A stretch of DNA of 64,000 bases from NCBI GenBank assembly GCA_041940025.1, contig JBGTSY010000001.1, positions 445,362 to 509,361 on the forward strand. The letters run 5' to 3'. The notes beneath the pieces were generated by a model. That model did not search any database. It was not told the DNA's origin and saw only the letters and a program-made list of their open reading frames with translations. Positions 2,245 through 50,004 of this stretch are shown here, piece after piece. Source of the DNA: Thiotrichaceae bacterium. Lineage in GTDB: Bacteria > Pseudomonadota > Gammaproteobacteria > UBA5859. The position numbers and the translations under genes were made by a program. Each line of letters starts with the position of its first letter. Within the stretch, counting starts at the first letter, position 1.

Positions 2245-2518
2245 TTGATTAAAACTTATCCACAATTTTTGTGGATAACTCTGTGTATAAAACACGGACA
2301 TCATCCTTCTTAATGCAGTTATTTGTTTGGTTATTTTTTAATCAATTATTCTAGATGCTGCATAATTATATTTAATTCAATAGCTTATATGTACATAAAT
2401 GTGTAAATTGTTAAAAATATGTTATAAGAAAGAAAAAATAGCATTTCATTCAAATTTCTGTCGGTTGTGAATAAAGTTGATCACTTCAATTGTTACATAT
2501 TTTAGCTGAAGCCGAATC

Positions 2519-4431: not shown

Positions 4432-4446
4432 GAAATTGCCCAGGGA

Positions 4447-5286: not shown

Positions 5287-5406
5287 GGTTCCCGTTTCCG
5301 ACGATTTTAAAACAAGAGCTTACCTGGTTTGGGATTTCAAATTGTTTCTAAATTTTCAGGCCACACTGGTCGATTTTAATACTATTGAGAATAGTATTCG
5401 TATGTC

Positions 5407-7338: not shown

Positions 7339-7399
7339 TATGGTTCGATTTCAATATAGGTTTCGATTGTTTAGGTTAATATTAGATTAGGAATGATAA

Positions 7400-8077
7400 A
7401 TGAAAAAATTAGGTTATTTTGGATGGATTCTACCGGCCATACTTAGTCTCAGCTTTGCAGCATTTGCGGAAAAACCTAAAAATCAAATGGACCAATTCAG
7501 CTACACAATTGGTTATCGATTCGCTACTGATATTCAAAATCAAGGTTTAGATCTAGATCCAGATTGGGTTGGACGTGCGATATCTGATGTATTAAAAGGT
7601 AAAAGTGTGGCTTTAACTATAGAAGAAATGAATGCGTCAATGGAGGCGTACAAAAAGCAAAGACTGGCTGAATTGACGGAAGCAGGCAATAAAAATTTAC
7701 AAGTAGGACAACAGTATTTGGATAAAAATAAACAGAACAAAAATGTGGTCACATTAGACAATGGGTTGCAATATAAAATTGTAAAGGAAGGGACAGGTAG
7801 AACACCTAAGTTGCAGGATAAAGTAGTAGTGCACTATAAGGGAACCTTAATTGATGGAACTGAATTTGATAGTTCCTATCGTCGAGGTGAACCTGCCTCA
7901 TTTAATGTGAATGGCGTGATACAAGGTTGGCAACAGGCATTAACATTGATGTCTGAAGGAGCGAAGTGGGAACTAGCGATACCCCCGCATTTAGCATATG
8001 GTGCTCGTGGCAGTGGCCCAAGAATTGGTCCGAATGAAACTTTGTTATTTGAGGTGGAATTATTAGAAGTTAAATGA
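7400..8077 (+). CDS. fkpA: FKBP-type peptidyl-prolyl cis-trans isomerase, periplasmic (FkpA-like)
   Basis: Signal peptide, N-terminal dimerisation helix, and a C-terminal FKBP domain (VHYKGTLIDGTEFDSS...GWQQAL...LLFEVELL). Confidence 0.85.
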   Translation: MKKLGYFGWILPAILSLSFAAFAEKPKNQMDQFSYTIGYRFATDIQNQGLDLDPDWVGRAISDVLKGKSVALTIEEMNASMEAYKKQRLAELTEAGNKNLQVGQQYLDKNKQNKNVVTLDNGLQYKIVKEGTGRTPKLQDKVVVHYKGTLIDGTEFDSSYRRGEPASFNVNGVIQGWQQALTLMSEGAKWELAIPPHLAYGARGSGPRIGPNETLLFEVELLEVK

Positions 8078-8096
8078 GTTTAACTGAATCAAAAAA

Positions 8097-8121
8097 GGCA
8101 GCTTCTGGCTGCCTTTTTTTA
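8097..8121 (+). terminator. Rho-independent terminator after fkpA
   Basis: Hairpin ggcagc-ttctg-gctgcc followed by a T7 run. Confidence 0.5.
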
Positions 8122-8162
8122 TTTGCAGTATGATGGCTTATCGCTTAAGAAGAATCAAAGTC

Positions 8163-8831
8163 ATGTCTGAAAATGTGATAGAGATTAACAATCTTTCTTT
8201 TAGGTACAATGAGACAAGTCCATGGTTACTGAAAGAGTTAACTCTTTCGGTAAAAAAAGGTGAGTTTATTGCGATACGTGGGCCTAGCGGCGTCGGCAAG
8301 AGCACCCTATTAAATTTAATCGCGTTGTTAGCCAAGCCCGACAAGGGTCAGATCAGGTTAATCGGTGAAGATGTGACGAATTTTTCGGAATCGCACGCTA
8401 CCCTGTGGCGGCGACACAATCTGGGATTTATCTTCCAACAATTTCATTTGTTGCCGCATTTGACCGTTGTGGAGAATATTCAATTGCCATTGGCTTTAAA
8501 TCGGCTAAGTTTAGTCTCTCCAGAGCTAACAGAAATATTGCACATATTGAACATTGCCGATCTTAGTGATGAATACCCGCGCCATCTTTCCGGAGGTCAA
8601 ATGCAACGGGTGGCGATTGCCAGGGCGATGATTCATCAACCTGCAATTTTATTGGCAGATGAGCCAACCGGAAATCTGGACGAGGAGCTTTCCGACGAAG
8701 TGCTGAAGTTAATGGTCAAGCAAATCAGATTAAGACAAGTGACAACATTGATGGTGACCCATTCCGATTCTGCTGCGTCCTATGCGGATAAGGCTTGCTA
8801 TTTTGAAAACCATAAACTTACATTGGCGTAG
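8163..8831 (+). CDS. ABC transporter ATP-binding protein (YbbA/LolD-like)
   Basis: Walker A GPSGVGKST, signature LSGGQMQRVAIARA, Walker B LLADEPTGNLD. The start is chosen at MSENVIEINNL; the ORF track begins at 8130. Confidence 0.85.
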   Translation: MSENVIEINNLSFRYNETSPWLLKELTLSVKKGEFIAIRGPSGVGKSTLLNLIALLAKPDKGQIRLIGEDVTNFSESHATLWRRHNLGFIFQQFHLLPHLTVVENIQLPLALNRLSLVSPELTEILHILNIADLSDEYPRHLSGGQMQRVAIARAMIHQPAILLADEPTGNLDEELSDEVLKLMVKQIRLRQVTTLMVTHSDSAASYADKACYFENHKLTLA

Positions 8832-11358
8832 TGTCTCGCTTTTAGTCAAAAGTATTGTTCTCGGTCCAATTCGATTTCATCCGGGACGCACCTTGACGAT
8901 GCTAATTAGTGTTGTCATTGGTGTGGCCTTGTGTGTGGCCGTAGATGCCATCAATAGTGCTGCGCTAAAGCAGTTTCAAGTCAGCGCAAGCATGTTGTCC
9001 GCTCAGTCGGATTTTTATCTTGAGTCGCGCGACGGACAGATTGACCCTTCCATATTACAGACGATTAGTCATTGGCCGGAAGTTGATAATACCTTTGCGA
9101 TGATTCAACGTGATTGGCCACTCAGCCACAAGCACAATGGTGACACGATAACGGTAACAGCCTTTGATTTTTCACAGGATGACAGGTTCAATGCATTAGG
9201 CGATGTAGGCACGGCGCTGAAATTACTGTCCATACCCGTACCTTTTACGATTCCCGCACTGGTCTCCTACGAAACTTTGTCCCACTTCGGTTGGCAGATT
9301 AACAGTCAGATCTGGCTAGAGACTGAAACAGGCCAACAATCGGTGACTATTGTCGCGGCATTTCCGGCCACGGGACTGATCACCGATGGCATTCTTATGG
9401 ACATTCAGCAAGCCAGGCAGCGATTGAGTTTAGATGGAAAAATTGATCGCTTAGACGTGCGATTAAAAATGCCAGAGCGCATGTATGCGGTTCAACAAAA
9501 GATCACTAAAACCTGGCCAAACATCATACTCTCTAATGCATTAATCGATCGTCAGAGAGTGAAAGCGATGACGCGAGCGTACCGTATTAATCTCGGCATG
9601 CTCTCATTAGTGGCTTTACTGACAGCGGGTTTTCTGGTGTTTAGTTTGTTGTCTCTTTCGTTCCGCCGTCGGCGAGAACAGTTACAGTTATTGAGATTAT
9701 TAGGCTTATCTCGTTTTTCCTTATTAATTAATTTGGCATTCGAAAGCTTATTGATAGGGGTGGTGGGAAGCACGATTGGTTTACTACTGGGTATCGCATT
9801 AGCGCAGATAGGAGTTCAGTTATTAGGCGGAGATTTGGGCGCCGGCTATTTTAAAATTGATGTGTCTACAATAGAGTTACAGATACACAAGATATCAATC
9901 TATTTTTTTCTTGGACTGGGTGTGACTGTGTTAAGCAGCGTGATACCCATTAGCTTGATATTCTTGCAGACCAAACAACCGATGATTCGATCTGGGGCGG
10001 CGGAGGATGTGCATTGGATCTCTGGGAAAACGGGTTTGATAGCTGCTGCTCTACTGTTGTTGTTGGCGTACTATTTAGCCACACAGCCCGCAATTGCCTC
10101 CCTACCGATAGGTGGATACGGCGCTATCCTGGCATGTTTAATGAGTGGCTATTTCATCTTGCCCGCGTTTATTCAGTTGTGTTTAGGTTGGGTTCGATTG
10201 AGTCGAGTTCCCCCAGCTCTGTTTGTCGCCATTAACCAACTTAGAGGGGCACCCGGCCGTGCAGCGAATGCCAGTGGTGCAGTGTTAGTGAGTTTTGCGT
10301 TACTGGTTGCCATGACCTCAATGGTGTATTCATTTCGGACTACAGTGGTGGCATGGTTAGATGATGTATTGGCTGCGGACTATTATCTATTTGTCAAAGG
10401 TGACGATCCATCTTTTCGCTTTCAACTGGCAGATCTAGAAGAGATCCGAAAACTGCCCTATATCTTTAGAGCATCGCCGATTCTGGATATGGACTATCTA
10501 TATGGAAGCGATCCACTGAGTCATCCGATTAAATTCAGTGCCAGGGATTTCGCTGATGCCAAAATAAGAGAACTGTTTATTCAGGAAAAGGCCACAGTAA
10601 ACACATTTGATCGAAGAAATGAGATAATTGTTTCAGAAACGTTTTCTGGCATCTATAAAAAGGAAGTTGGCGAGACAGTTCAACTCAATTTTCAAGGAGA
10701 GGAGTATTCGTTCCGAATTGCAAGTATATGGCGCGACTATGGTTACCAATTCGGCCGTATTCTGATGGATTTCGACCGATATCGAGAGTTGACAGGTAGT
10801 CACGATTTTAATGGCATCGCATTAGTGACAGAAACTGCTATTTCGTCAATAGAGTTAAAAAAACAAATGAAAGAACAATTGCCAGGCAGTTTACATTTAG
10901 AATTGGTGAGTAGTTCTGATATTAAATCAGTTAGTATCAATATATTTGACAGAACCTTTGCAATCACCTACGTATTGGTTTTTATTGCGGGAGTTGTGGG
11001 GCTGTTTTCAGTGATCAATACATTGGCAATGCAGTCCCGGGAAAGGTTATCAGAGTTTGGCATGTTGCGACACCTTGGCATGGGTTCTTCTTCCGTAGCC
11101 AATTGTTTAGCGTTTGAATCCATGTTGTTAATGATGGTTGGCGTGCTTACTGGAACCCTGGTGGGATTGGCCATATCGATGATTTTGATTCATGTAGTGA
11201 ATGCGCAATCTTTTCATTGGACCATTGATACTTATCTTCCAATAGTACAATTAACCCTGTTTATTTTCGGATTTATTGCATTAGGTTGGTTCGGCGGCAT
11301 GATTTTTGGCTGGCAAACTGCTCGACAGGATCCAGTGGCGGCAGTTCGTTCAGAGTAG
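8782..11358 (+). CDS. FtsX-family ABC transporter permease (YbbP-like, duplicated FtsX domains)
   Basis: 858 aa. N-terminal WRSVSLL resembles the YbbP N-terminus. There are two MacB-like permease halves. The exact start is uncertain because it overlaps the ATPase gene by about 50 nt. Confidence 0.75.
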   Translation: MRIRLAILKTINLHWRSVSLLVKSIVLGPIRFHPGRTLTMLISVVIGVALCVAVDAINSAALKQFQVSASMLSAQSDFYLESRDGQIDPSILQTISHWPEVDNTFAMIQRDWPLSHKHNGDTITVTAFDFSQDDRFNALGDVGTALKLLSIPVPFTIPALVSYETLSHFGWQINSQIWLETETGQQSVTIVAAFPATGLITDGILMDIQQARQRLSLDGKIDRLDVRLKMPERMYAVQQKITKTWPNIILSNALIDRQRVKAMTRAYRINLGMLSLVALLTAGFLVFSLLSLSFRRRREQLQLLRLLGLSRFSLLINLAFESLLIGVVGSTIGLLLGIALAQIGVQLLGGDLGAGYFKIDVSTIELQIHKISIYFFLGLGVTVLSSVIPISLIFLQTKQPMIRSGAAEDVHWISGKTGLIAAALLLLLAYYLATQPAIASLPIGGYGAILACLMSGYFILPAFIQLCLGWVRLSRVPPALFVAINQLRGAPGRAANASGAVLVSFALLVAMTSMVYSFRTTVVAWLDDVLAADYYLFVKGDDPSFRFQLADLEEIRKLPYIFRASPILDMDYLYGSDPLSHPIKFSARDFADAKIRELFIQEKATVNTFDRRNEIIVSETFSGIYKKEVGETVQLNFQGEEYSFRIASIWRDYGYQFGRILMDFDRYRELTGSHDFNGIALVTETAISSIELKKQMKEQLPGSLHLELVSSSDIKSVSINIFDRTFAITYVLVFIAGVVGLFSVINTLAMQSRERLSEFGMLRHLGMGSSSVANCLAFESMLLMMVGVLTGTLVGLAISMILIHVVNAQSFHWTIDTYLPIVQLTLFIFGFIALGWFGGMIFGWQTARQDPVAAVRSE

Positions 11359-15651: not shown

Positions 15652-15802
15652 AAGTTAGAGATCCCTATATTATTTCTCATGATCGTGTAGAATGGCGCCG
15701 CATTCCAAGTTCCCCTAGAGAATGTGAGCCTTAATAATGAAAGTCATTATTTTGAGCCGGATAATTGTATCTTAGGTATAGAATATTTATGGAGATGATG
15801 TC

Positions 15803-16129
15803 ATGAAGAACCTTGTTGCTGTAGTCGGGTTTTGTCTATTGTCTGTAGCGTCCTTTGTGCAAGCAGAAGAAGATGGTAAAAAAATTTATGAGAGTGCCTG
15901 TTTTGCATGTCATAACGCCGGTATTGCAGGAGCCCCCAAACTAGGGGATGCCGCACAGTGGGGACCACGTTTAGAAAAAGGTGTGGCTACCATCAAACAG
16001 AACGCGATTAAAGGATTTTCTGGCAAGACGGGGTTTATGCCGGCGAAAGGTGGTCGTGCAGATCTTTCCGATGCCGCCGTCGAGGCAGCTGTGGATTATA
16101 TGTTGTCTCAAACAAAAACTGCTGAATAA
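15803..16129 (+). CDS. Cytochrome c5 (mono-haem, class I)
   Basis: Signal peptide and a single CxxCH (CFACHNAG). 108 aa. Confidence 0.75.
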   Translation: MKNLVAVVGFCLLSVASFVQAEEDGKKIYESACFACHNAGIAGAPKLGDAAQWGPRLEKGVATIKQNAIKGFSGKTGFMPAKGGRADLSDAAVEAAVDYMLSQTKTAE

Positions 16130-18630: not shown

Positions 18631-21252
18631 ATGCGACGAATACTTTCCAATACACTATTTCTAATTTTCTCGTCGACATTCATTTTCGGCTGTCAAACCT
18701 CGCAAACTGGATTGGAAAATTTGCAACAGGCGTCAGACGGTGCGTCTCAACAACAAACCTCCTTGGTGAAACCGAGAGGCTATGTTCTCCCCACCAGCTT
18801 TTCAATAGCGCCTCATACCCAGGATTCCACTCTCTCCACTGTAGGGGATTTAATTGGCTCAATATTAAGTGATGGCGATGGCATGCCCGCAGATTCGGAC
18901 AATTTTCACGTGGTAAAACGCTCGTACGTATATGAGCCCTTACTAGAACAGTTTGGTTTAGTTGACAACATTCTTTTTGGTCTGGCGCAAACTCACTATG
19001 ATGAAAGAGAGAATGTCAATGTTGGTCCATACTCAGCTAGAGTATACATTCGTGACGGATCCAGTTTAGTTCCGGCTACTACTTATCAGGACTGGGTGAT
19101 TGAATCTGAAGTAGAAACGAAAGAGGGCGAAACAGACATTCATACGGTTCGTGCCTGGATTGATAGTTATACAGATTCGGGCCTTCAGTCAATGCACGTA
19201 GAGTTGACAATATACAGCCCAGCTTATGTCGATGGCGAAGGGGCAGTGAGTGATTTTGGACAATGGGATTTACGGGTAAATTTTCCTGCGCAGCCCAATG
19301 ATTTCATGGTGACAAAGGTTCGATATCTGAATAGCGAAGCACTAATACATATTAATAGCCGTAAAACTCATTGGCTGGATTCGGCGAACACCAATGTCGC
19401 ATTGGTTTATCAAGGCGAACTGCACCGAGGTCGTGATAGAGGTTTTGGTAAATTTCGTTTCAGTGATCTAGATTTTTGTCACCAACAATTGGCGGCGGAG
19501 GCAGCACCCTGTTCTTCAGAGGTGCCTGTGCGTGAGGTATCTTACGCCTATAACAAAGAAGGAATGAGTGTACAGCGGGCAGGAGATGTTGCGGTCTATC
19601 GTGATCGGAAACAGTCAGTACAGATCCCAATAGAGTATGGGTTATACAATAGCGTCACCGGAGAGGATATCAAGAATAGTTTTCAGTTTGAATTTCCAAT
19701 CTCTTATACGGACCCCTTGGGACAAGAGCAGTGGGCACGTTACCTCACGGAAAATGGCCGGCACCATTTAGCTGGTTTGACCGCAGGACAACCTCCAGTC
19801 GATTCAACTGTTATTCGGCGACAGATTGCCAATCGTGCAATTGAACGTCCTTATCAAGTCGCGCATCATACTGAAGGTGTGTTATATCAAGTGGTTTCAT
19901 CCAATGAAGGTGTCAGCAATGAGCTTGAGCATTGGAATTGGGAAGTTGAATATGACCGTCATTGGATCTTGAAATATGATGCCCATGACTCAGTTTGGCG
20001 CCGCTGTTTATCGCTATGGCACGAATTGACAGGGTGTGGTGAAGGCGATGCGGATTGGATAGAGTTTGCTGACATGGAGTCATTGACTCACATCGAGCAA
20101 CAGCGACTGCTGAATTATGACATGATCTCCAAAACAAATAATATTCAGTTGGTTTACTTAGAGGATGCTCGTGCCCATTCTGGCGACGGGTTTTACGAAG
20201 CTGGCTATCATGTAGAAACAGGTCAACTAGAGTCGGTTGGTGCGCGTTGGAGCCCTAGTGATGGTGAAGTGATTGAGTTGAATATGCAGGCATCGCTATT
20301 ACTGAAGAAAGAAACAGACACGAACCAATGGTACCGATTCCGCGTCACTGATTCATTACTCTCAAGTCAATTACCGATCTCCTCGGGTGATACAGATCTT
20401 CATGATTGGCAACCTGGAGTCTATCACCTACGCCAACCTGGTAGAAAATTAATGCTCAAAGTAGAGGAAGATGGCTCAAAAAGAGTGGTTCACGAACACT
20501 GGCACGCATTACACCCCAATACCGTATCCGAGAAGGAGATTTCCGACCAGATCCTATTTCGTGGTGGGGAAGACAGTAGCCAGTTGTACAGGTTTCAAAA
20601 TAACGACAGTCAAACACACTTCATGTCCTTAGTCTACGCCAGCGGTGCACAAGAAGGAGAATTGGTGCGCCATAGCGTTTGGGATCTTTGGCAAGTCGAT
20701 AATACTGGTGCGTTGGTGGATTCTGAAGGTAACATACTTACCACCGAGCAACTTGCAGCGGACGAGGCAAATGATCTTGTAAACCAATATCGATGGGTTT
20801 ATCGAGAGGATGGATCTAGTCACCAGACCTTTTTCAAGGATGCCATCGGAGATTGGGTTCAGTTAGCTGCTCCAAGAAGCTTCGAAGCTGTGAAAATTTC
20901 CAAACAAACCGTCTCGTTAAGATATGATTCGCAATTACAAGGATTAATACATCCTATTCGTGATCTAACAAAGCTAGGGTGGCAACTACATGCAGAAACC
21001 GAAAAACATCTGGTGCAAATTCGAGAAGAGATTGAACTGCAAGATAGGGAGACACAAGTAAAATATTTAGCGAAACCAATTGTTCAATTTAATTTGTCTC
21101 AGCACCTGGATGAAAATAGTGTGAGTGGCCCCGATCTTACTCAAGCGCATCACATAGAATTTGATGGCTTACCTGAGGCAGAGCAAACTTCTTTGACCCA
21201 CATGCCAGCCGTCAGTGGGCCAAAATATATCGGTGGTTTACGCACTCAGTGA
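18631..21252 (+). CDS. Large lipoprotein (873 aa) of unknown function
   Basis: Signal peptide with lipobox LIFSSTFIFGC. No recognisable catalytic motif. A good RBS lies upstream. Confidence 0.6.
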   Translation: MRRILSNTLFLIFSSTFIFGCQTSQTGLENLQQASDGASQQQTSLVKPRGYVLPTSFSIAPHTQDSTLSTVGDLIGSILSDGDGMPADSDNFHVVKRSYVYEPLLEQFGLVDNILFGLAQTHYDERENVNVGPYSARVYIRDGSSLVPATTYQDWVIESEVETKEGETDIHTVRAWIDSYTDSGLQSMHVELTIYSPAYVDGEGAVSDFGQWDLRVNFPAQPNDFMVTKVRYLNSEALIHINSRKTHWLDSANTNVALVYQGELHRGRDRGFGKFRFSDLDFCHQQLAAEAAPCSSEVPVREVSYAYNKEGMSVQRAGDVAVYRDRKQSVQIPIEYGLYNSVTGEDIKNSFQFEFPISYTDPLGQEQWARYLTENGRHHLAGLTAGQPPVDSTVIRRQIANRAIERPYQVAHHTEGVLYQVVSSNEGVSNELEHWNWEVEYDRHWILKYDAHDSVWRRCLSLWHELTGCGEGDADWIEFADMESLTHIEQQRLLNYDMISKTNNIQLVYLEDARAHSGDGFYEAGYHVETGQLESVGARWSPSDGEVIELNMQASLLLKKETDTNQWYRFRVTDSLLSSQLPISSGDTDLHDWQPGVYHLRQPGRKLMLKVEEDGSKRVVHEHWHALHPNTVSEKEISDQILFRGGEDSSQLYRFQNNDSQTHFMSLVYASGAQEGELVRHSVWDLWQVDNTGALVDSEGNILTTEQLAADEANDLVNQYRWVYREDGSSHQTFFKDAIGDWVQLAAPRSFEAVKISKQTVSLRYDSQLQGLIHPIRDLTKLGWQLHAETEKHLVQIREEIELQDRETQVKYLAKPIVQFNLSQHLDENSVSGPDLTQAHHIEFDGLPEAEQTSLTHMPAVSGPKYIGGLRTQ

Positions 21253-21315: not shown

Positions 21316-22089
21316 TTGCAAGGTGACGCAGCCAGTAAACAAGTTGAAAAAGGAATTCAAATCTATACAAAATCTACTCATAGTGTCACAGATGAGCAGA
21401 TAGCGTACTGGGTGAAACACTGGTTTTCTCAGCAAGAGAAGAAAAAATATTCGGCTTTTCGAACCGCCGAGGACAAGCGTTTATATGCTGTGGCTCATGG
21501 TTTAACAAGATTCGTCTTGTCTCAACATGCGCCTATTGCACCGCGAGATTGGTGCTTTAATTTTAATGAGTACGGCAAACCAGAAATCGCCAATAGTCTA
21601 CCTGATAGTCTGTTTTTCAATTTATCTCATACTAAAGGGCTTGCTGCATGTGCGTTGAGTTGGCATCAGGTATGTGGTGTTGATGTGGAATTAACAGCCC
21701 ACTTGGATGATTTAGAGCAGGTCGCTCAGGAGGTTTACTCTGCTCAGGAATTGAGCCACCTAATGTCATTGAAGGGCCATGAACGTCTGTTTAGATTTTA
21801 TTGGTTGTGGACGCATAAAGAAGCATTTATTAAAGCTTGTGGTATCGGAATGTCATTACCCTTGAAAACTTTTACGATGAAGGGCGAAAAAAATCATTGT
21901 AAAATGGTGTTTCATCCTGGGTTTCCCGGTGATCATGAGCACAGTTTTGATGCCTCCCGATGGGGTTTCTTTTGGCGTGTGCTCCATGATAACTATCAAC
22001 TGACGGTTTCTTCACCTGATCACGATAAGTGTCGAAACAGCGTGATCCATTCATTGGACGCGTTGGATTTTAGTGAGTCATATAACTAA
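21316..22089 (+). CDS. 4'-phosphopantetheinyl transferase, Sfp/EntD/PcpS type
   Basis: Motifs FNLSHTKGLAACAL (the FNxSHS block) and WTHKEAFIKACG (the WxxKEAxxK block). Confidence 0.8.
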   Translation: MQGDAASKQVEKGIQIYTKSTHSVTDEQIAYWVKHWFSQQEKKKYSAFRTAEDKRLYAVAHGLTRFVLSQHAPIAPRDWCFNFNEYGKPEIANSLPDSLFFNLSHTKGLAACALSWHQVCGVDVELTAHLDDLEQVAQEVYSAQELSHLMSLKGHERLFRFYWLWTHKEAFIKACGIGMSLPLKTFTMKGEKNHCKMVFHPGFPGDHEHSFDASRWGFFWRVLHDNYQLTVSSPDHDKCRNSVIHSLDALDFSESYN

Positions 22090-22246: not shown

Positions 22247-23008
22247 ATGATCTATAGAATTTTTGTATCCACCCTATTTGTTATCTCCTTGGGTCTGTCT
22301 GGCACCGCTGCCGCAGAAAAGATGGCGTACGACCTACCGAACGGTGACTATTATGAAGGACAAATTGAAAATGGTGTGAAACAGGGTAAGGGCATTTATC
22401 GCTGGAGCAATGGCGATCGATATGAAGGGGAATGGCACAATAATCAGTTCTCAGGCCAGGGAACATTCACCTTCGCCAATCAAGATCACTACAAGGGTCA
22501 GTGGAAAGATGGACTGTTTTCCGGAAAAGGAACCTATACCTGGGCCACCGGTAGTCGTTATGTGGGAGAATTTAAGAACGGTCAGAAGCATGGATTTGGA
22601 GAATACATTTGGGGTGAAGGAGAACGTTACGAAGGAAATTGGAAGGAAAACAAACGTCACGGTAAGGGGACTCGTTACTGGCCAGACGGAAAAAAATACA
22701 TGGGGGAGTATCGTCATGATAAACGTCATGGGAAAGGGGTAATGACCTGGCCGGGAGGAGAAAAATATGTGGGCGAATACCAAAATGGCCAACAATCGGG
22801 TACGGGTGTATTGACCTGGCCAGATGGGCATCGCTATGAAGGTCAATTTGTGAAGAATAAGAAGACTGGCGAAGGCACATTTCAGTGGCCTAATGGCGAT
22901 AAATACGTGGGCAGATTCGTTGATGATCTACCTGAAGGTGAGAGTACTTGTTATTTTTCCGGACGGGAAGAAAAGTGTATTTATCGCCGCGGTCAGCGAA
23001 TCAATTAG
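22247..23008 (+). CDS. MORN-repeat protein, secreted
   Basis: Signal peptide followed by about 9 tandem 23-aa MORN repeats (Y.G.W.NG..HG.G.). Start chosen at MIYRIF, which has an RBS. Confidence 0.7.
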   Translation: MIYRIFVSTLFVISLGLSGTAAAEKMAYDLPNGDYYEGQIENGVKQGKGIYRWSNGDRYEGEWHNNQFSGQGTFTFANQDHYKGQWKDGLFSGKGTYTWATGSRYVGEFKNGQKHGFGEYIWGEGERYEGNWKENKRHGKGTRYWPDGKKYMGEYRHDKRHGKGVMTWPGGEKYVGEYQNGQQSGTGVLTWPDGHRYEGQFVKNKKTGEGTFQWPNGDKYVGRFVDDLPEGESTCYFSGREEKCIYRRGQRIN

Positions 23009-23072: not shown

Positions 23073-24500
23073 CTATTCAGTCTTTGGAAGGGGTACTGTT
23101 TCCAACCATTTACTAACTTGATTGAGATCTTGCACCGTTAAATCACCTACAGCTTGTTTGAGTCGAAAATTGTGGAGAACATAGTCAATACGCGCGAGAT
23201 TAAGATCTCTCTGTGCGTTTAGTAAGGTGCGTTGCGCGTTTAACACATCCATCAAAGTACGGGTACCACTTTCAAAACTCGCTTTAGTGGCTTGTACCGC
23301 CCTTTTATTGGAAACAATCGCTAATTTTTGTGCAGTGACTCTGGTAACTGCCGCGTTAACCAAGTGGAATTGATTCTCTGTGAATATTGCCACTGAACGC
23401 TTTTGAGCATGATAGAGTTCTTCAGCCTCGCGAAACTTATAGTAAGATTGTCTCGTTGCTGCACTCACACCACCACCGCTAAAAATCGGAACAAACAGTT
23501 CTAGACCAAGGCTTTCGGTGTCTGCTGGCGGAATAAATCCAGAGCCGTCCTCAGTGTCTACCCGGTTGATCGCACCGACAAAATTTAAAGTTGGTAGATG
23601 ACCGGATTGGTTTTTTTGCGTCTCACGTTGTGCTGCTTGCACGCCTTGCTTCGAAGCAAATAGTTCTAAATTGGATTCCAAGGCGCGGGTGATCCAAGCG
23701 TCCGTACTGTTTGGGGTCGGTTTGGAAATGGGGAATTCTGCTTTCAAACGCCCAATCTCCCGAATACTGGTGCCGGTTAGGTTTTCCAGATTACGAAGCG
23801 CCAGTGCCAATCCACTTTTTGCGAGCAAGATTTGGGTTTGGCTCAGATCGGCGGCTGCCTGCGCTTCGAATACAGCGGTATTGGCCATCAAACCCAACTC
23901 AAAACGTTTATTCGCCTGTTGCAGCTGGAAGTCCACCGATTGTTGTTCTCGGGTAGCGAATTCTAAGTCTTCTAGAGCACGCAATACGTCGAAGTAGGTT
24001 TCAGTGACTCTCAGAATGAGATTCTGTTGTTCTGCATCAAACTTCCATTCAGCTTGATTTCTGAGCGCTTTGGATTGTTGATAATCGTACCAGCGATCAA
24101 TTTGAAACAGAGGTTGTCGGAGTCGCAGAGAAAGGGATTGGCTTCGATAGTCTATCGCCCTTTCTTGGGTAACGAAGAGACAAGTGGGGTCAAACTGGTT
24201 CAGGTTGGCTACATTAAAGTCGCAATCAGAAAGTGCGTCGGTATTAAATTCTGGTGTGCCTGGACCGTCATAGGAGTTCTCTGTATAGGTTGCCGATGCG
24301 GAGATGTTGGGTAGTAGACGAGACCGACCTATCTTGGGTAGTTCACGACCCGCTCGAAGGGCAGCTCTGGCAGCTATCCACTGGTGATCATGTTCTGTTG
24401 CCAACTCATATATGGCGGTTAGCTCCGAGGAGTGAGTGGTAGTTGGTAGAAGAGCGATTAAAGCAAGTGCCAGCGGCAAGAGACGAATTTGGTACATCAT
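23073..24500 (-). CDS. TolC-family outer membrane efflux protein
   Basis: Signal peptide MMYQIRLLPLALALIALLP. Two repeated alpha-helical/beta-barrel halves typical of OEP/TolC. Start chosen at the MMYQ methionine. Confidence 0.85.
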   Translation of the reverse strand: MMYQIRLLPLALALIALLPTTTHSSELTAIYELATEHDHQWIAARAALRAGRELPKIGRSRLLPNISASATYTENSYDGPGTPEFNTDALSDCDFNVANLNQFDPTCLFVTQERAIDYRSQSLSLRLRQPLFQIDRWYDYQQSKALRNQAEWKFDAEQQNLILRVTETYFDVLRALEDLEFATREQQSVDFQLQQANKRFELGLMANTAVFEAQAAADLSQTQILLAKSGLALALRNLENLTGTSIREIGRLKAEFPISKPTPNSTDAWITRALESNLELFASKQGVQAAQRETQKNQSGHLPTLNFVGAINRVDTEDGSGFIPPADTESLGLELFVPIFSGGGVSAATRQSYYKFREAEELYHAQKRSVAIFTENQFHLVNAAVTRVTAQKLAIVSNKRAVQATKASFESGTRTLMDVLNAQRTLLNAQRDLNLARIDYVLHNFRLKQAVGDLTVQDLNQVSKWLETVPLPKTE

Positions 24501-25404
24501 GTTGTTTAACTTTCTTTTAATAATTACGACTTCAATGAATTCAGAGCGAATTACCCATACAGATCTGGATCTGCCATTTTGCACTGTTGCAGGTATCCGC
24601 ATTCATTTGGCCAGTATCTCAAACTTTGAACTCTCAGTCGGGCCAATCTCGATTGTGATGAATTTCAGATAATCTTCTCAGTAGTCAATTTTTCACGTTT
24701 AGAGTTTCTTCTCGTGTTATCGATTCATTTTTTACTGATAAACTCATCCTAAGGGGGCCCTATTGCTAATTTTAAGTGTGGTTAGTAAGCCATCCAAGGG
24801 CTAATTTCTGTATCTTTAGAAAATTAACATATATTGTCATTTATGATAGCCTCGATTAAATAGTCCAAATACGATTATATTTCATAAATTGTCACAACAA
24901 CTCATTGTTAGCAAACATGTCCATAGATTTCCAATGATCGCGTAATAGAACCTATGGAATGGAGTAGTCGAAACTCATAAAGACAACTATAAATACAGGT
25001 GTTTAATCCATTTGTTGCGGAAATATTTGGTCGATAAACTAAAATGACGTTAAATTAACTGAATTCGCTTTTTATAATGACTTTAGTCCCTGGTCCTCAG
25101 TTATATTTTCCTTCAAAATGAGCAAAATCGGGTCGACACAGAGGGTCACTTTGAGACTATTCAAAAGGCACGCGATCCCTTAGCAATCATTGTAATTACT
25201 TTGTCTAAAAGTATTAGATGAAAAATATGATTATAAATCAATAGATTGAAATATCGAAAAGATGGATTGGAGACGATAAAAAGTACAGGCGCAAAAGATG
25301 GGCTAGACAGTTCTTCGCAACAGAAACTGCAATGGAATACAAAGTTTCACCTCCTCAAGCAAGAAGTGTTTTAACAATCAATACAGTTTAGATGAGATGT
25401 TTCA

Positions 25405-26178
25405 TTGATGAGTGTTAATTTGCATAAAAATCCATGGTTCCATATACCGCGTCCTAGTGAGAACGCGCGAGTGAGACTATTCTGTTTTAGCTACGCCGGT
25501 GGCAGCGCTCAAGTTTTCCACGACTGGCCGAATTATTTGTCAGATCAAATAGAAGTGTATGCCATTCAGCTTCCTGGCCGTGGATCCCGTCTGCTCGAAG
25601 CGCCTCTGGTTTCTATGGAAGAGTTGGTTCAAGAACTGTATTTAGCCTTGGCGGCTGAAATCAAGGTTCCCTTCGCATTTTTCGGGCATAGTATGGGGGC
25701 GCAAGTGGCGTTCGATCTGCTTCAGCGAATGCGGGCAGAGGGGACCGCCCTGCCTAGCATGCTCATGGTGAGTGGTCGTCGGGCCCCTCAACTTAAGCAC
25801 CGAAAAAGAAAGATTTATGATTTACCTGAAGATGAGTTTAAACGAGAATTAGATCGATTGAATGGCACACCCGCAGAAGTACTTGAACAACCTGAGTTGA
25901 TGGAGTTGTTAAGTCCGGCGTTGAGAGCGGATTTCCAGTTAATTGAAACATGGTGTTATCAACCTAAACCGCCAATTAACATTCCAATTGCCGCCTTTGG
26001 TGGCATCGAAGACGTGGAGGTGAGTTTTAGTGATTTGGATGCCTGGAGTCAGCAGACTGATTCTGTTTTTTCTGTGCAGATGTTTCGGGGAGACCATTTT
26101 TTCTTGAATTCAGATAAGGAAGAGTTATTGACTCGAATTCAATATTTGTTGGCACCAGAACAGCATGCCGATGTGTAA
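25405..26178 (+). CDS. Type II thioesterase (alpha/beta hydrolase, GrsT/RifR/PchC-like)
   Basis: LFCFSYAGGSAQVF N-terminal block. GHSMGAQVA nucleophile elbow (GxSxG). Conserved C-terminal GDHFF (His). Confidence 0.8.
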   Translation: MMSVNLHKNPWFHIPRPSENARVRLFCFSYAGGSAQVFHDWPNYLSDQIEVYAIQLPGRGSRLLEAPLVSMEELVQELYLALAAEIKVPFAFFGHSMGAQVAFDLLQRMRAEGTALPSMLMVSGRRAPQLKHRKRKIYDLPEDEFKRELDRLNGTPAEVLEQPELMELLSPALRADFQLIETWCYQPKPPINIPIAAFGGIEDVEVSFSDLDAWSQQTDSVFSVQMFRGDHFFLNSDKEELLTRIQYLLAPEQHADV

Positions 26179-26216
26179 AAATGCATTCTTAGAGAAAAGA
26201 GATAAAGAAGTGAACA

Positions 26217-27620
26217 ATGAATAAAACTATAAAAATATTAGTGCCCTTTATCGTATTAATAGGGAGTATGGGAGTAGCTTGGTTCCTGATTCAATTTGGT
26301 CCCGAAGTCGAGCAGGCACAAGTTGAGAAGCGTGTACCGGCTGTTAGTGTTGTGGCGGCCGAGGCCAAGACCTTAAGTATTCCTGTCTATACTCGTGGAA
26401 CCGTGATCCCTGGTACTGAAATCCAACTATCCGCCGAAGTGGCGGGAAAAATTATTAGTGTATCTAAAAATTTTAAAAACGGTGGATTTTTTAAAAAGGG
26501 AGAAACTCTATTCACCGTCGATCCGACTTTGTTTCAGTTAGACGTTAAAAAAGCTGAGGCGATGGTTGCCACCGCTAAACTAAATTATGAAAAAGCGCAA
26601 GCCAACGTAGAGGCGAATCGTTCAATCTCAGGTTTGCCTCAGACCGATTTTTCGCTCGGGATCCCACAACTGGAAGAGGCGCGCACACGCTATGAAGCGG
26701 CTAAAGCGGATGCACAATTAGCACAAATTCAGTTACGAAGCGCATCCTTAAAAGCTCCTTTTCGTGGACGTATTCGCCAAAAATTGGTGGACGTGGGTAA
26801 ATATGTGACACCAGGCATGCCGGTGGCTATCTATTATGCGACTGCAACCGCAGAGGTGCGTTTACCGCTAACCGATGAACAGCAGAAGTTAATTGATATC
26901 CCGCTGCAATATGAGGACAACGAGCCTTTTACCGAGCCTGTGAATGTCAGTTTCACCGATACCAGTGGTCGGTATGAGTGGCAGGGTAAGTTAGTTCGAA
27001 GCGAAGCGGGGTTTGATGAAACCAATAGATTATTTTATGTGGTTGCAGAAGTAAATGCGCCTTATAAAAGGGACCCTAGGCAACCAGAAAAACCACCGTT
27101 TGCTGCGGGATTATTTGTCGATGCGCAAATTGAAGGACGTGTGCATGATCGGATAATAGAATTGCCACGTGAAGTATTGCATGCCAATGATGTTGTTTGG
27201 ACTGTGGATGAATCCTCAAAATTGAAGAAAAAGCAGGTGGAGGTATTGCATCGAGGACGTGATACCGTTTTTATTGCAAATGGCATCAACGCCGGCGAGC
27301 AAGTGATTACCACCTTGCTTGACGTGGCAGTGGACGGTATGCAGGTGAAAATATTGCGACCTCAGATGAGAGAAAAAGTTGACAATAGTCAATCAAAAGA
27401 ACCCATACCAAGTAATGAGTCATTAGATAATCAAACTGTTGTCGTCAAAACTACCAATACTAAGACTAAAGAACAGAAATCTACTGAATTAGAAAAACCC
27501 AGTGAATCTGAATCTAAAGCCGAAGTTCGGAGTGACTCGGTTGAGGACAGCAATAGGGCGCCAAACTTGGCCGAACAGATTGTAGTTGGCATCAAACCCA
27601 TGAAGGAAACACCTAGGTGA
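26217..27620 (+). CDS. RND efflux periplasmic adaptor (HlyD-family MFP) with a low-complexity Ser/Lys/Glu-rich C-terminal extension
   Basis: N-terminal TM anchor, coiled-coil and beta-barrel MFP domains. The tail (about 90 aa) is SKEPIPSNESLD...SESESKAEVRSDS. Confidence 0.85.
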   Translation: MNKTIKILVPFIVLIGSMGVAWFLIQFGPEVEQAQVEKRVPAVSVVAAEAKTLSIPVYTRGTVIPGTEIQLSAEVAGKIISVSKNFKNGGFFKKGETLFTVDPTLFQLDVKKAEAMVATAKLNYEKAQANVEANRSISGLPQTDFSLGIPQLEEARTRYEAAKADAQLAQIQLRSASLKAPFRGRIRQKLVDVGKYVTPGMPVAIYYATATAEVRLPLTDEQQKLIDIPLQYEDNEPFTEPVNVSFTDTSGRYEWQGKLVRSEAGFDETNRLFYVVAEVNAPYKRDPRQPEKPPFAAGLFVDAQIEGRVHDRIIELPREVLHANDVVWTVDESSKLKKKQVEVLHRGRDTVFIANGINAGEQVITTLLDVAVDGMQVKILRPQMREKVDNSQSKEPIPSNESLDNQTVVVKTTNTKTKEQKSTELEKPSESESKAEVRSDSVEDSNRAPNLAEQIVVGIKPMKETPR

Positions 27621-30600
27621 ACGCGATCATTAGATGGTTTGCATATAATCGGGTTGCAGCGAATCTGATGATGGCGCTTATCTTGATTTCAGGACTGTTA
27701 GCTTTACCAGAGATCAGAAAAGAGATCTTACCGAATATGGAAATGGATGCGATTTCCATTACGACCGCATTTCCTGGTGCCTCTCCGTCTGATGTGGAAG
27801 AAGCCGTTTGTCAGCGCATTGAATCAAATTTACTAGGGATGGATGGAGTTAAAAATTTAACCTCTCTTGCGAGTGAAGGTATTTGTCAGACTACTGTCGC
27901 CGTTGATTATGGGGTTAATGTTCGAGAGGTGGTAGAGAACATTAAAGTGACTGTGAGCGGTATCGGCACTTTTCCAAAAGAGGTCATCACTCCGATAGTG
28001 AAGCAAATTAAAGTCTCTCCAATGGTGGCAAAAGTTGTGGTTTCTGGCGATGTGGACGATGCAGTGTTAAAAACTGTCGCCGAAAAAGTAAAGGCAGATC
28101 TATTTGCGTTACCTGAAATCACACAGGTCTCCTTTGATAATATAAAGAAAACTGAGATATCAATTGAAGTCTCAGAAGTTGCCTTACAGCGTTATCGACT
28201 CAGTTTTGCTGAAATAGCAGCACGAATTCGCGAGTCGTCCGTCAATGTACCAGGTGGCAGTATCAATACTACTGCGGGAAAGGTTGCTGTTAGTATTCAG
28301 GGGAGACGTGCAAATGCAGAGCAATTTGAAAATATCGTTATTCGTGCATTACCTGATGGCGCACATATTAGATTAAAAGATGTTGCGACGGTGACGGAAG
28401 GGTTCGCCGTTCAGCGTATTGAAGGACGCTATAATGGCCGTCCAGCCATCGCAATCAGTGCATTTCGTACAGGTAATCAAAGTATCTTACAGATTGCTGA
28501 CTCTATGCATCAGTATGTGAATGAGCAAGAAAAAGGATTGCCGCAAGGGGTGTATCTAAATGTCTGGCAGGATAATTCAAGCTACCTAAAAAGTCGCATA
28601 AAGTTAATGTCGAACAATGCCGTCGGTGGCTTTTTCTTGGTTTGGGCGATATTAATGTTGTTCATGCGTTTTCAGCTCTCGTTCTGGACAAGCTTAGGGA
28701 TCCCCATATCTTTCTTAGGAACCTTGTGGTTATTGCCTTACTTTGGCGGTTCGATCAATATGGTTTCCCTGTTCGCCTTTATCCTGGTGCTCGGCATTGT
28801 TGTTGATGATGCCATTATTGTGGGGGAACAAGTTTATACCGAACATGGTCGAGGTAAGAGTGGGACGGAAGCCGCAGTAAGCGGTGCTCAAGAAGTAGCT
28901 AAGCCGGTAATTTATGCTGTTTGCACGACAATCTTAATATTTTTACCTCTACTATTCCTCCCTGGACCACAAGGTAAATTGATGTACGCCATTCCTCTGG
29001 TGGTGACCATTACTCTATTTTTTTCTTTGGTGGAATCCTTGTTAATTTTACCTGCCCATTTATCTACAATCCGACCTGAGAATCATCAGCAAACAGGATG
29101 GTTTGACAGAATGCACAAGACATTTGATGACGGCATTGAAAATTTTGTCGATCAGTATTACCGACCATTTTTGAGTCGTACATTGGAATTGCGATATCTC
29201 ACTGTGGCTCTCTTTGTTGGAATGATGTTTTTAACGCTTTCTTTAATGATTGGAGGGTGGCTCAAGGTCAACTGGTTTCCATCAATCGAGGCAGATGTCG
29301 CTATCGCCAATTTGAGTTTTGCCAAGCAGACGCCTCACGAGGTGACCGCTGATGCTATGCAGCGAGTGGAGCAAGCTGCTGTTGAGTTGAGGAAAAAATT
29401 GAGAGAGGAAAATGGTGAAGATCAAATTACCAATTTGGTTACCATTATTGGAATAAAAGGTGAGAATACAGGTCGAATCGTGGTGGATTTAGCACCTTCT
29501 GAAGCGCGTAAAGTCTCTGGTGAAGAAATCAGTAGACGTTGGCGGGAGACGGTCGGCGAAATCCCTGGTGCCACTGAGTTTAAAATCGAATCCACCTTAG
29601 ATACCACCGGTCCCACATTAGACATAGAATTCATTGGCCAACATCTCGATGCTCTAGAATTAGCGGCAAATTCCTTCAGACGTCATTTGGAAACCTATCC
29701 TGCTGTATACGAAATTCGTGATTCTTTACAAAGCTCGAAACAGGAGATACAGATTCAGTTAAAGCCTCGTGCCCAGGAACTGGGTCTGAGTGTGAATGAA
29801 TTAGCGGCCCAAGTACGCCAGGCGTTTTACGGTACTCAGGTGCAAACCGTTCATCGAGGCGAAGAGGAGGTAGATGTCATAGTACGTTATCCAGAATCTT
29901 CAAGAGAGTCTCTGTGGCATCTGGAAAATATGAACGTCATGTTGCGATCGGGTGCCGTGGCACCTCTCCACAGTGTCGCCCTACTGTCCTATGGCGAAGG
30001 GCCATCTGAAATCAGACGTAAAAACGGTGCCAGAACTGTTCGTGTCAGAGCCTATGTGGATAGCGGGATGGATGGCTCCGATCTTGTAGAATCGCATGTT
30101 AAATCAGAGTTTCTAAATAAGTTAGAAAATAATTTTCCAGGAGTCAGTTGGCAACCTTCCGGTGCGCAAAAAAATAAACAGGAATTTTTAGACTATTTAT
30201 CCCGTAGTTATATTCTGGCGCTTTTGGCAATGTATATTTTAATGGCAGTGTTGTTTCGATCTTATTCGCAACCATTAATGATTTTGTGGGCGGTGCCCTT
30301 TGGTGCAATTGGCGCACTGATTGGTCACCTCTTCATTGGTATAGAGGTGACCTTGTGGTCTTTGGTGGGTATCTTTGCAGTGAGCGGGGTAGTGGTAAAT
30401 GACAACTTGGTGCTGATTGATTTTATCAACAAGGATTTAGCGCGCGGCGCGCGCTTGTTGGATGCCATTAAGGATGCCGGTGCGGAACGATTTAGACCGA
30501 TTGTGTTGACCTCAGTGACGACTTTTGGTGGATTAACACCAATGATGTTGGAGCAAAGCTTACAAGCGAAATTTATGATTCCGATGGCGGTTTCTCTCGC

Positions 30601-30736
30601 TTTCGGTGTGGTTTTTGCGACCTTTGTGAGTCTCCTTTTGGTGCCAGCCACTTACCATATACTAGACGACATTCAGCAATTGATCGGTGTTGCAGGGGCT
30701 AGATTTGGAGATAATAAATCAATGAAAAAGCCGTAA
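27617..30736 (+). CDS. RND efflux permease (AcrB/HAE1-like, 12 TM)
   Basis: 1039 aa. Start overlaps the MFP stop (GTGA). Canonical AcrB N-terminus MNAIIRWFAYNRV... Confidence 0.9.
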   Translation: MNAIIRWFAYNRVAANLMMALILISGLLALPEIRKEILPNMEMDAISITTAFPGASPSDVEEAVCQRIESNLLGMDGVKNLTSLASEGICQTTVAVDYGVNVREVVENIKVTVSGIGTFPKEVITPIVKQIKVSPMVAKVVVSGDVDDAVLKTVAEKVKADLFALPEITQVSFDNIKKTEISIEVSEVALQRYRLSFAEIAARIRESSVNVPGGSINTTAGKVAVSIQGRRANAEQFENIVIRALPDGAHIRLKDVATVTEGFAVQRIEGRYNGRPAIAISAFRTGNQSILQIADSMHQYVNEQEKGLPQGVYLNVWQDNSSYLKSRIKLMSNNAVGGFFLVWAILMLFMRFQLSFWTSLGIPISFLGTLWLLPYFGGSINMVSLFAFILVLGIVVDDAIIVGEQVYTEHGRGKSGTEAAVSGAQEVAKPVIYAVCTTILIFLPLLFLPGPQGKLMYAIPLVVTITLFFSLVESLLILPAHLSTIRPENHQQTGWFDRMHKTFDDGIENFVDQYYRPFLSRTLELRYLTVALFVGMMFLTLSLMIGGWLKVNWFPSIEADVAIANLSFAKQTPHEVTADAMQRVEQAAVELRKKLREENGEDQITNLVTIIGIKGENTGRIVVDLAPSEARKVSGEEISRRWRETVGEIPGATEFKIESTLDTTGPTLDIEFIGQHLDALELAANSFRRHLETYPAVYEIRDSLQSSKQEIQIQLKPRAQELGLSVNELAAQVRQAFYGTQVQTVHRGEEEVDVIVRYPESSRESLWHLENMNVMLRSGAVAPLHSVALLSYGEGPSEIRRKNGARTVRVRAYVDSGMDGSDLVESHVKSEFLNKLENNFPGVSWQPSGAQKNKQEFLDYLSRSYILALLAMYILMAVLFRSYSQPLMILWAVPFGAIGALIGHLFIGIEVTLWSLVGIFAVSGVVVNDNLVLIDFINKDLARGARLLDAIKDAGAERFRPIVLTSVTTFGGLTPMMLEQSLQAKFMIPMAVSLAFGVVFATFVSLLLVPATYHILDDIQQLIGVAGARFGDNKSMKKP

Positions 30737-45594: not shown

Positions 45595-46233
45595 ATGAAT
45601 ACAACTAACAGTCCTATACCGTGGAGTCGCTTGTATCAATATCGTCGGGAGGTGAATCATATCTATTCCGATCCGATGAAAATAAAGATCGCAAAACGAC
45701 CGCAGACACTTCTCAAACCCTTTATAGTCAGCCGCAGTACGATTTTAGAAATTGGCGCAGGTCAAAGAAAATTGAAGGATCAATTATCAAGCTTATGTGA
45801 TGACATCGAGTATAAAAGCTATGATATCGATACAGATAATTTTCATGATTACTACGACTTAGATAAGATTGAGGGTAAGTTTCAAATTATTTGTATGTTT
45901 GAGGTCATTGAACATTTGACCATTGACATGGCGTTTCAAATATTAAGTCGCTGTTATGATTTGCTCGACACAAATGGAATCATGCTTATTACCACACCAA
46001 ACATCTATTATCCGCCCGCGTTCTTAAGAGACATCACTCATATAACCCCTTGGGCATACGATGAGTTGGCAGGATTTGGTAAATTGATCGGATTTGAGGT
46101 ATCTGATATTTATCGGCTCTATCATGATGCACTGCATAGAAAAATAGTTAGACGATATTTGTTACATCCACTGCATAAATTGATTGGCATTGATTATGCG
46201 AAACAGGTGGCAGTTCTATTGCGAAAGCCTTAG
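45595..46233 (+). CDS. Class I SAM-dependent methyltransferase
   Basis: Motif I ILEIGAGQRKL, acidic post-I YDID, motif II FQIICMFEVIEHLT, motif III NGIMLITTP. Confidence 0.6.
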   Translation: MNTTNSPIPWSRLYQYRREVNHIYSDPMKIKIAKRPQTLLKPFIVSRSTILEIGAGQRKLKDQLSSLCDDIEYKSYDIDTDNFHDYYDLDKIEGKFQIICMFEVIEHLTIDMAFQILSRCYDLLDTNGIMLITTPNIYYPPAFLRDITHITPWAYDELAGFGKLIGFEVSDIYRLYHDALHRKIVRRYLLHPLHKLIGIDYAKQVAVLLRKP

Positions 46234-48183: not shown

Positions 48184-48187
48184 TCAA

Positions 48188-49994: not shown

Positions 49995-50004
49995 GTATTC
50001 ACTA

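Follow-up and report, generated by a model that had tools for sequence, protein, structure and literature searches.

We investigated a 64,000-nucleotide stretch of the genome of a Thiotrichaceae bacterium (contig JBGTSY010000001.1, positions 445,362 to 509,361; hereafter the window), in which genes for a type II thioesterase (TEII), a membrane fusion protein (MFP) and a resistance-nodulation-division (RND) permease stand divergent from tolC, a gene for an outer-membrane factor (OMF). By sequence, the TEII-MFP-RND genes are homologues of the operon that closes a large nonribosomal peptide synthetase (NRPS) cluster in Ketobacteraceae-like marine Gammaproteobacteria. What is new here is an NRPS-cluster editing-and-export operon that stands without its synthetase and is joined to tolC and to a gene for a 4'-phosphopantetheinyl transferase (PPTase). 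With moderate confidence, we read the region from 21.3 to 30.7 kb as the accessory part (priming, editing and export) of a carrier-protein pathway, most likely an NRPS pathway, whose synthetase would be encoded elsewhere in the genome. An earlier note had described tolC as divergent from a TEII-MFP-RND operon, and Pfam and NCBIfam scans of the open reading frames (ORFs) of the window confirm all four gene families. The features are as follows, positions being those of the window.

25408 to 26178, + strand: TEII, 256 aa, first gene of the operon; PF00975 2.3e-48, residues 24-245
26217 to 27620, + strand: RND membrane fusion protein, 467 aa; TIGR01730 150 bits against a cutoff of 94.9
27363 to 27617, + strand: C-terminal low-complexity tail of the MFP, residues ~383-467 (~85 aa), outside the MexA/AcrA core
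27617 to 30736, + strand: RND permease, 1039 aa; ACR_tran 1.2e-162, residues 5-1016; 4-nt overlap with the MFP gene, translationally coupled
23073 to 24500, - strand: TolC-family outer-membrane factor, 475 aa; TIGR01844 293 bits against a cutoff of 225; PF02321 6.7e-57
24501 to 25407, no strand: divergent intergenic region, 907 bp; GC 0.33-0.36 against about 0.44-0.50 in the flanks
24821 to 24842, no strand: imperfect palindrome AAATTAACATATATTGTCATTT, 22 nt, from a repeat search; inside the best-conserved block of the intergenic region
21316 to 22089, + strand: Sfp-type PPTase, 257 aa; PF01648 4.7e-14 and AASDHPPT_N
22247 to 23008, + strand: secreted MORN-repeat protein, 253 aa; PF02493, 8 repeats, 1.6e-59; signal peptide MIYRIFVSTLFVISLGLSGTAAA; convergent with tolC

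The TEII-MFP-RND cassette and its relatives

The nearest counterpart of the locus belongs to a sister species, the metagenome-assembled genome (MAG) GCA_002432655.1 (loci L004 and L176; also MAG L175), at 81-90% amino-acid identity. The gene order is the same: polA and, further on, an 873-aa lipoprotein, PPTase, MORN protein, TolC, the divergent TEII-MFP-RND genes and then PAP2 and Amt. Between window and sister species, the ratios of nonsynonymous to synonymous substitution (dN/dS) of the four genes lie at 0.04-0.09 at dS 1.1-1.6, with 0.047 for TolC, 0.091 for the thioesterase (TE; dS ~1.1), 0.06 for the MFP and 0.040 for the RND permease. Purifying selection acts strongly on every gene of the cassette. 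With its dN/dS of 0.09, the TE is therefore no decaying remnant.

Beyond the sister species, a recurring cluster was found in Ketobacter alkanivorans (CP022684; locus L008), in several marine MAG scaffolds and in strain HdN1 (L093). It begins with a giant NRPS (~5,500 aa), an aminotransferase (Aminotran_3), a gene resembling condensation (C) domains on the opposite strand and an EntS-type exporter of the major facilitator superfamily (MFS_3). These are followed by the TE, an MFP of 550-600 aa, an RND permease of ~1,113 aa, a MORN protein of ~365 aa and, on the opposite strand, a Ser/Thr kinase. The cassette lies directly downstream of the giant NRPS in seven distinct loci (L008, L089, L091, L094, L099, L100 and L178), all of which have MFS_3, while Aminotran_3 is found in six (not in L178) and the C-domain-like gene in five; L178 has the variant order NRPS, MFS_3, TE, MFP, RND. 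The same seven loci have an NRPS/PKS (polyketide synthase) gene cluster beside the TE, the contextual mark of a TEII, and the window does not. In both loci checked, L008 and L178, the NRPS terminates in a TE domain of its own. Compared with these relatives, the window is missing the NRPS, aminotransferase and MFS genes, has tolC added and has the MORN gene moved to the other side. In addition, its TE-MFP gap measures 38 nt as against ~200-290 nt.

A TE-profile search of representative genomes gave 80 TEII loci across many phyla, of which L009 in the Moraxellaceae MAG NORP69 is the only one with a window-type MFP, RND and MORN beside the TE; the other 79, from other groups, are lone TEs, 46 of them with strong NRPS-domain matches within 10 kb. 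A PPTase gene directly follows the TE in 14 of the 80. In the reverse survey, metagenomes were scanned with the RND profile, and among the 80 RND relatives a TE stands beside the RND gene only at 49-51% identity (L099 and L100, both in full NRPS context). The ~75 RND loci at ≤44% identity are all plain MFP-RND pairs, and at L096 (47% identity) such a plain pair sits between RNA-repair genes (RtcB/RtcA) and a DsbA gene. A neighbour-joining tree of 88 TEs places all pump-linked TEs, that of the window included, in a single clade with 71% bootstrap, and an NRPS-type TE subclade reaches 100%. The identities of TE, MFP core and RND co-vary between lineages, and the gene order TE-MFP-RND is preserved in more than 10 loci. 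Because of the shared TE clade, the co-varying identities and the two surveys, the three genes have travelled together; as judged from these comparisons, TE-MFP-RND is a conserved, co-inherited unit, usually with MORN after it.

The earlier note had taken TE and pump to belong together, and the synteny in more than 10 loci, the tree, the co-varying identities and the constraint on the TE bear this out. It had also reasoned that nearest homologues lying inside NRPS clusters of other genomes would make the TE a relocated remnant. NRPS clusters are indeed where the nearest homologues lie, but the pump genes are there with them.

The cassette can clearly survive separation from a synthetase. It lacks an adjacent NRPS in at least two lineages, that of the window and that of the L009 MAG, and the HdN1 cassette has no NRPS match within 10 kb. 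Therefore, the L009 and HdN1 loci suggest that the cassette may act as its own unit.

The relatives vary in other respects. L009 (1-10879) has TE-MFP-RND-MORN and the Ser/Thr kinase, with a GGDEF gene where MFS and NRPS would be, on a contig of only 11.8 kb. Upstream of the HdN1 cassette (1802-9490) lie genes for an aminotransferase, a GT4 glycosyltransferase, a 638-aa protein without a Pfam match, a C-domain-like protein and MFS_3, so that in HdN1 different chemistry may feed the same export cassette. One marine lineage (L089/L090, 11032-13949) has TE, MFP (600 aa) and MORN without RND, and keeps NRPS, aminotransferase and MFS. The Ser/Thr kinase stands beside the cassettes of L008 (17170-18153), L091 (17264-18247), L093 (19318-20079) and L094 (17286-18260), each time on the - strand, and is 65-83% identical among the relatives' loci; no counterpart lies near the window cassette. 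At L179 (4204-12502), in a Hahellaceae MAG, a GH3-family (acyl-amido synthetase-like) gene and two unknown genes precede a related MFP-RND pair whose MFP has no tail, which suggests that the pump clade has been recruited by other small-molecule pathways.

Genes of the window and the divergent spacer

The spacing of the genes in the window, with 38 nt from the TE stop to the MFP start and an MFP/RND overlap of 4 nt, supports an operon of TEII, MFP and RND. Terminator and promoter scans gave counts equal to those of shuffled sequence and are hence uninformative. Two start positions have been corrected. The TE begins at the ATG at 25408 instead of the TTG at 25405, and tolC begins at ~24500 (475 aa) instead of 24602 (a 509-aa ORF) because of the MMYQIRLLPLALALIALLPTTTHS signal peptide, the gene-caller starts and a 14-nt indel of the sister species in the extra stretch.

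The TE is a TEII by fold family, size (~250 aa), GxSxG motif, triad and solved homologues. The triad, Ser95 (in GHSMG), Asp202 and His230, is invariant in an alignment of 36 homologues. The closest solved relatives are all stand-alone TEIIs, namely 6vap (which we take to be BorB; 1.2e-47), RifR (5.7e-40) and 3qmv/3qmw (~4e-36), of which 3qmv is a RedJ-type structure; SrfTEII (2.9e-32), TesA (6fvj; 7.6e-28) and YbtT (9e-28) match as well. Identity to canonical TEIIs of NRPS/PKS clusters from many phyla is 44-52%, and the nearest relatives beyond the sister species are only ~50% identical. Inspection of the TE sequence found no signal peptide, and the TE is therefore cytoplasmic. The editing function of TEIIs is established for the family (references in PMC3039948), whose members regenerate mis-primed or stalled carrier domains. 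A core synthetase with C, adenylation and peptidyl carrier protein domains was found neither at the locus nor in the rest of the window, which thus holds an accessory cassette only.

The MFP consists of a core (residues 37-382) homologous to MexA/AcrA and a C-terminal tail. An AlphaFold2 model built from a 30-sequence alignment has a mean predicted local distance difference test score (pLDDT) of 82, with the core above 90 and a transmembrane (TM) anchor at residues 3-27. The earlier note had described an unusual Ser/Glu/Lys-rich tail of about 90 aa and proposed a disorder prediction for it. The tail is real at ~85 aa, with 12 Glu, 11 Ser and 10 Lys among the 87 residues 381-467; at a pLDDT below 50 and without secondary structure in the model, it is predicted to be disordered. 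The tails of the cassette relatives are 170-220 aa long and rich in Pro, Ala, Glu and Gln. All tails of the clade share the motif (M)SPLAxQ(I/L), the window version being PNLAEQIV, and the nearest MFPs outside the clade are tail-less at 390-400 aa. As judged from these alignments, the tail is a trait of the TE-linked MFP clade.

The RND permease, of the AcrB/MdtB type, can be aligned over its whole length with MdtB, MexB and AcrB, which makes it a full-length 12-TM protein. Its closest solved relative is MdtB (264 bits), and NCBIfam places it best among generic multidrug RND subfamilies. The MMPL model (PF03176) is unmatched by the window RND, and the only match, a weak one, is in the Ketobacter homologue. 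Of the canonical proton-relay residues (D407, D408, K940 and R971 in AcrB), the TM4 motif VVDDAI and the TM11 motif RFRPI are kept. The position of the TM10 Lys is taken by Asn928 followed by Asp929 (VVNDNL; residues 928-930 at 30398-30406), and this is invariant in six clade sequences. The RNDs of the NRPS-linked relatives have a ~75-aa C-terminal extension past the last TM helix (L008, about 15800-16025, and homologues) with the conserved motif QWHVGLDEAY...SPFELEVLSASWEAGWDDG; this extension may serve to dock a cytoplasmic partner. The window RND, ending at 30736, is without it. In the sister-species MAG L175 the RND gene is split. Pseudogenisation was considered and rejected there, since the split coincides with 1,329 Ns and is therefore an assembly artefact.

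The TolC protein has a next-best homologue that is only 41% identical among 5.8 billion proteins. Its gene is likewise adjacent and divergent in the sister species, and the other cassette relatives have no OMF gene nearby. With the corrected tolC start, the spacer runs from 24501 to 25407, and its 907 bp at GC 0.33-0.36 agree with the ~900-bp AT-rich control region of the earlier note. Aligned with the sister species (L004), it contains islands of near identity at ~24815-24860, 24885-24900, 25025-25125 and 25385-25410, and the rest has diverged. The palindrome AAATTAACATATATTGTCATTT may be an operator. By eye, a candidate -10 box can be seen near 25074 (TATAAT, conserved as TAAAAT in the sister species), and TTAAAT lies 18 nt before it; this would mean a 5' leader of ~320 nt. 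A riboswitch or small RNA was also looked for, but Rfam has no match in the spacer at E ≤ 1; with two species only, no covariation check applies. The spacer holds no convincing small ORF, and no regulator gene adjoins it. It is plausible that tolC and the operon are regulated together. A signature of iron regulation, as expected of siderophore genes, was sought too; the spacer has a Fur-box match of 13/19 at best, which is no better than in the rest of the window, lies in a non-conserved stretch and was rejected as evidence.

Two further genes accompany the cassette. The PPTase gene, 3.3 kb upstream of the TE and conserved in position in the sister species (L176), scores 95 bits with the HetI model of NCBIfam (below cutoff) and 66 bits with the Sfp structure 1qr0. 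The MORN gene remains with TE-MFP-RND through the rearrangements and stands on the far side of tolC in the window. Its homologues, at 39-50% identity, directly follow the RND gene in L008 (16096-17166), L009, L091, L093 (16405-17586), L094 and L100, and directly follow the MFP gene in L089 (12834-13949), which has no RND. The solved structures that match the MORN protein are eukaryotic, judging by their names. Only the TE-linked clade has the tailed MFP and the MORN partner, and it is a speculation that the co-conserved MORN protein is the partner of the MFP tail.

Directly upstream of the PPTase gene, and kept in the sister species, lies the gene for the 873-aa predicted lipoprotein (18631-21252, + strand; lipobox ...FIFGC). 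Neither Pfam nor NCBIfam gives a match, even with E relaxed to 10. The protein belongs to a rare family: of 1.84 billion cluster representatives, 102 match at E ≤ 0.001, mostly proteins of 800-950 aa at 24-32% identity. A hidden biosynthetic enzyme was considered here and rejected, as the protein has no domain match and is absent from the relatives' cassettes. The remaining window is housekeeping: polA, engB, cytochromes c including cytochrome c4, dsbA, an ammonium transporter, lipopolysaccharide (LPS) core genes and acyl-CoA dehydrogenases. The LPS-core cluster (46230-53988, - strand) is ordinary; it encodes two heptosyltransferases, three glycosyltransferases of family GT4 and three kinase-like proteins of the Kdo/WaaP family, and it helps to assign the organism to Pseudomonadales-like Gammaproteobacteria.

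Role of the cassette

Purifying selection on the TE implies that it has a substrate. Therefore, either a synthetase is encoded elsewhere in both genomes, that of the window and that of the sister species, or the substrate is independent of any synthetase. We favor the first, since an Sfp-type PPTase adjoins the cassette, though this is possibly the general enzyme of the cell. In the NRPS-linked relatives, the free-standing TE is most likely an ordinary editing TEII, because the NRPS has its own cis-acting TE for release, and the pump is most likely the exporter of the product; both roles are read from gene context. In the window, the PPTase would prime the carrier domains of a distant synthetase, and it is a possible member of the cassette. 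The cytoplasmic TEII would hydrolyse mis-acylated or stalled thioesters on the carrier domains and so keep the assembly line running, as its family and the cis-TE of the relatives suggest. The finished product, probably together with amphiphilic shunt products freed by the TEII, would then reach the periplasm or the outer leaflet, from where a pump of membrane-anchored MFP and RND permease, completed by the TolC of the divergent gene, would expel it. The MORN protein and the disordered MFP tail with its motif would be lineage-specific accessories of the pump.

The earlier note had proposed that hydrolytic release is coupled directly to export. The evidence does not support this. AcrB-type RND pumps load their substrate from the periplasm or the outer leaflet. 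Direct coupling is unlikely because the TE is cytoplasmic while the pump loads from the periplasmic side; in addition, the relatives' NRPSs have a cis-TE for release and their clusters a separate MFS exporter. A looser link between editing and export is plausible. Both are clearance functions, and the pump could remove amphiphilic shunt products that the TEII has freed.

Several points weigh against a distant synthetase served by this cassette. Domain scans found no NRPS, PKS or carrier-protein gene in the whole 64-kb window, and the MFS_3 exporter and aminotransferase of the relatives' cassettes are absent from it. The cassettes of L009 and HdN1 have no adjacent NRPS either. The PPTase could be the general-purpose enzyme of the organism, unrelated to the cassette, and it is the adjacency of the genes that suggests TolC as the partner of the MFP-RND pump. 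We infer the pump substrate, the TE role, the TolC partnership and the distant synthetase alike. The word orphan, which the earlier note used for the TEII, thus fits in that the window has no NRPS, PKS or carrier gene, but the Sfp-type PPTase 3.3 kb upstream had gone unmentioned.

Alternatively, the cassette may be independent of any synthetase, with the TE hydrolysing another thioester, for example an acyl-ACP (acyl carrier protein) of fatty-acid synthesis, and MFP-RND-TolC expelling the freed acyl product once it has partitioned into the membrane. We consider this possible, at a clearly lower probability. It would account for the lack of a synthetase in 64 kb, for a TE that is still strongly purified at dS ~1.1 and hence has a substrate, for the cassettes without adjacent NRPS in L009 and HdN1 and for the shortening of the TE-MFP gap from ~200-290 nt to 38 nt. 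In addition, PF00975 includes the medium-chain acyl-ACP hydrolase 4xjv, and AcrAB-TolC of E. coli is thought to export free fatty acids made by a thioesterase (PMC5331629). However, the TE is 44-52% identical to canonical NRPS/PKS TEIIs, nests in the NRPS-linked clade and evolves without rate acceleration relative to MFP and RND. Its cytoplasmic location, with a pump that loads periplasmically, makes a direct coupling unlikely in this case too. A bolder claim along these lines, that TEII-MFP-RND(-MORN) is a self-contained hydrolysis-plus-efflux module that needs no synthetase at all, in which the TE would free an acyl or small peptidyl product from a carrier protein for secretion by the tailed-MFP pump, and that the tail motif and MORN are a new periplasmic RND accessory, has a similarly low probability in our view.

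It is unlikely, and somewhat more so, that the pump is a general multidrug or solvent pump, with the TE left over as the first gene of an ancestral operon and functionally unrelated to it. Related MFP-RND pairs do occur alone or in other contexts (beside RtcB/RtcA and DsbA in L096, after the GH3 gene in L179), the best NCBIfam models are generic multidrug subfamilies, and the locus lies amid the housekeeping genes polA, engB, cytochrome c4 and dsbA. Yet the linkage of TE and pump has been kept in at least four divergent lineages despite the removal of the NRPS, the move of MORN and the addition of tolC. The TE is constrained as strongly as the pump, and the tailed MFP with its MORN partner is confined to the TE-linked clade. 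Finally, that production was lost and hydrolase and pump were kept to survive or recycle a lipopeptide or siderophore of neighbours is very improbable: indirect points in its favor are that export and editing genes are kept without a local synthetase and that the presumed producers among the relatives live in the same marine habitats (by sample source), but the TE has no signal peptide, its family acts on carrier-protein thioesters and not on free peptides, and the window has no uptake receptor gene nearby. We therefore retain the accessory part of a carrier-protein pathway with a distant synthetase as the preferred reading.

Comparison with known systems

Most work on RND pumps has concerned drug resistance, and a natural substrate is known for few of them. 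The genomic company of this pump clade (a TEII leader and, in relatives, an EntS-like MFS exporter and a giant NRPS) points to native secretion of a secondary metabolite. The clade has two unexplained additions, the disordered MFP tail with its short motif and the secreted MORN-repeat partner. Ketobacter alkanivorans, a cultured carrier, makes the question testable, and a literature search found nothing linking Ketobacter to nonribosomal peptides. The synthetase-less cassette of the window is a natural experiment on the usefulness of a TEII and a pump apart from their assembly line. The finding refines the picture of cluster-encoded exporters; it introduces no new kind of system, and current ideas stand.

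With the stand-alone TEIIs RifR, SrfD/SrfTEII, RedJ, YbtT and 6vap, the window TE shares the PF00975 fold family, size, GHSMG-Asp-His triad and cytoplasmic location. In the relatives, a TE beside an NRPS with a cis-TE is the classical editing arrangement. The window TE, in contrast, leads an efflux operon and stands neither within nor beside synthetase genes, none of which lies within 64 kb.

The mycobacterial phthiocerol dimycocerosate (PDIM) system also unites a TEII and an exporter of the RND superfamily for one assembly line; it comprises TesA (a TEII), the synthase PpsE and MmpL7, a transporter for which a scaffolding role in synthesis and export has been proposed, as has a physical coupling of the three (PMC3709824). 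The window TE has recognisable homology to TesA, and the Ser/Thr kinase beside the relatives' cassettes recalls the regulation of MmpL7 by PknD. However, the window has neither kinase nor synthase, and MmpL is a different RND family that works without MFP or TolC. The likeness to TesA-PpsE-MmpL7 is thus one of analogy, with no family relationship.

PseABC of Pseudomonas syringae is a single OMF-MFP-RND unit, and we know of no thioesterase gene in its operon. The window differs in its divergent OMF, TEII leader, disordered MFP tail and MORN partner. Likewise an RND pump with MFP and OMF genes, PseABC belongs to an NRPS cluster as a dedicated or a recruited exporter, lying at the border of the syr-syp lipopeptide island, and is credited in the passages of PMC3039948 on that island with 40-60% of lipopeptide output. 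Two-step export, from an MFS transporter to RND-TolC, has been described for enterobactin and proposed for other siderophores in the export passages of PMC9408133, and neither these nor the PMC3039948 passages describe a TEII-MFP-RND operon. The MFS_3 gene directly upstream of TE-MFP-RND in the relatives fits this scheme, in which EntS hands over to AcrB, AcrD or MdtABC with TolC in E. coli and VexGH acts in V. cholerae; MdtB is also the closest solved RND to the window permease. The known RND pumps of such routes are unlinked and housekeeping, whereas the cassette pump is cluster-encoded. A siderophore role is unproven, as the window has no MFS gene and no Fur box. By function, the closest precedents for the cassette are PseABC and the RND-TolC export of siderophores.

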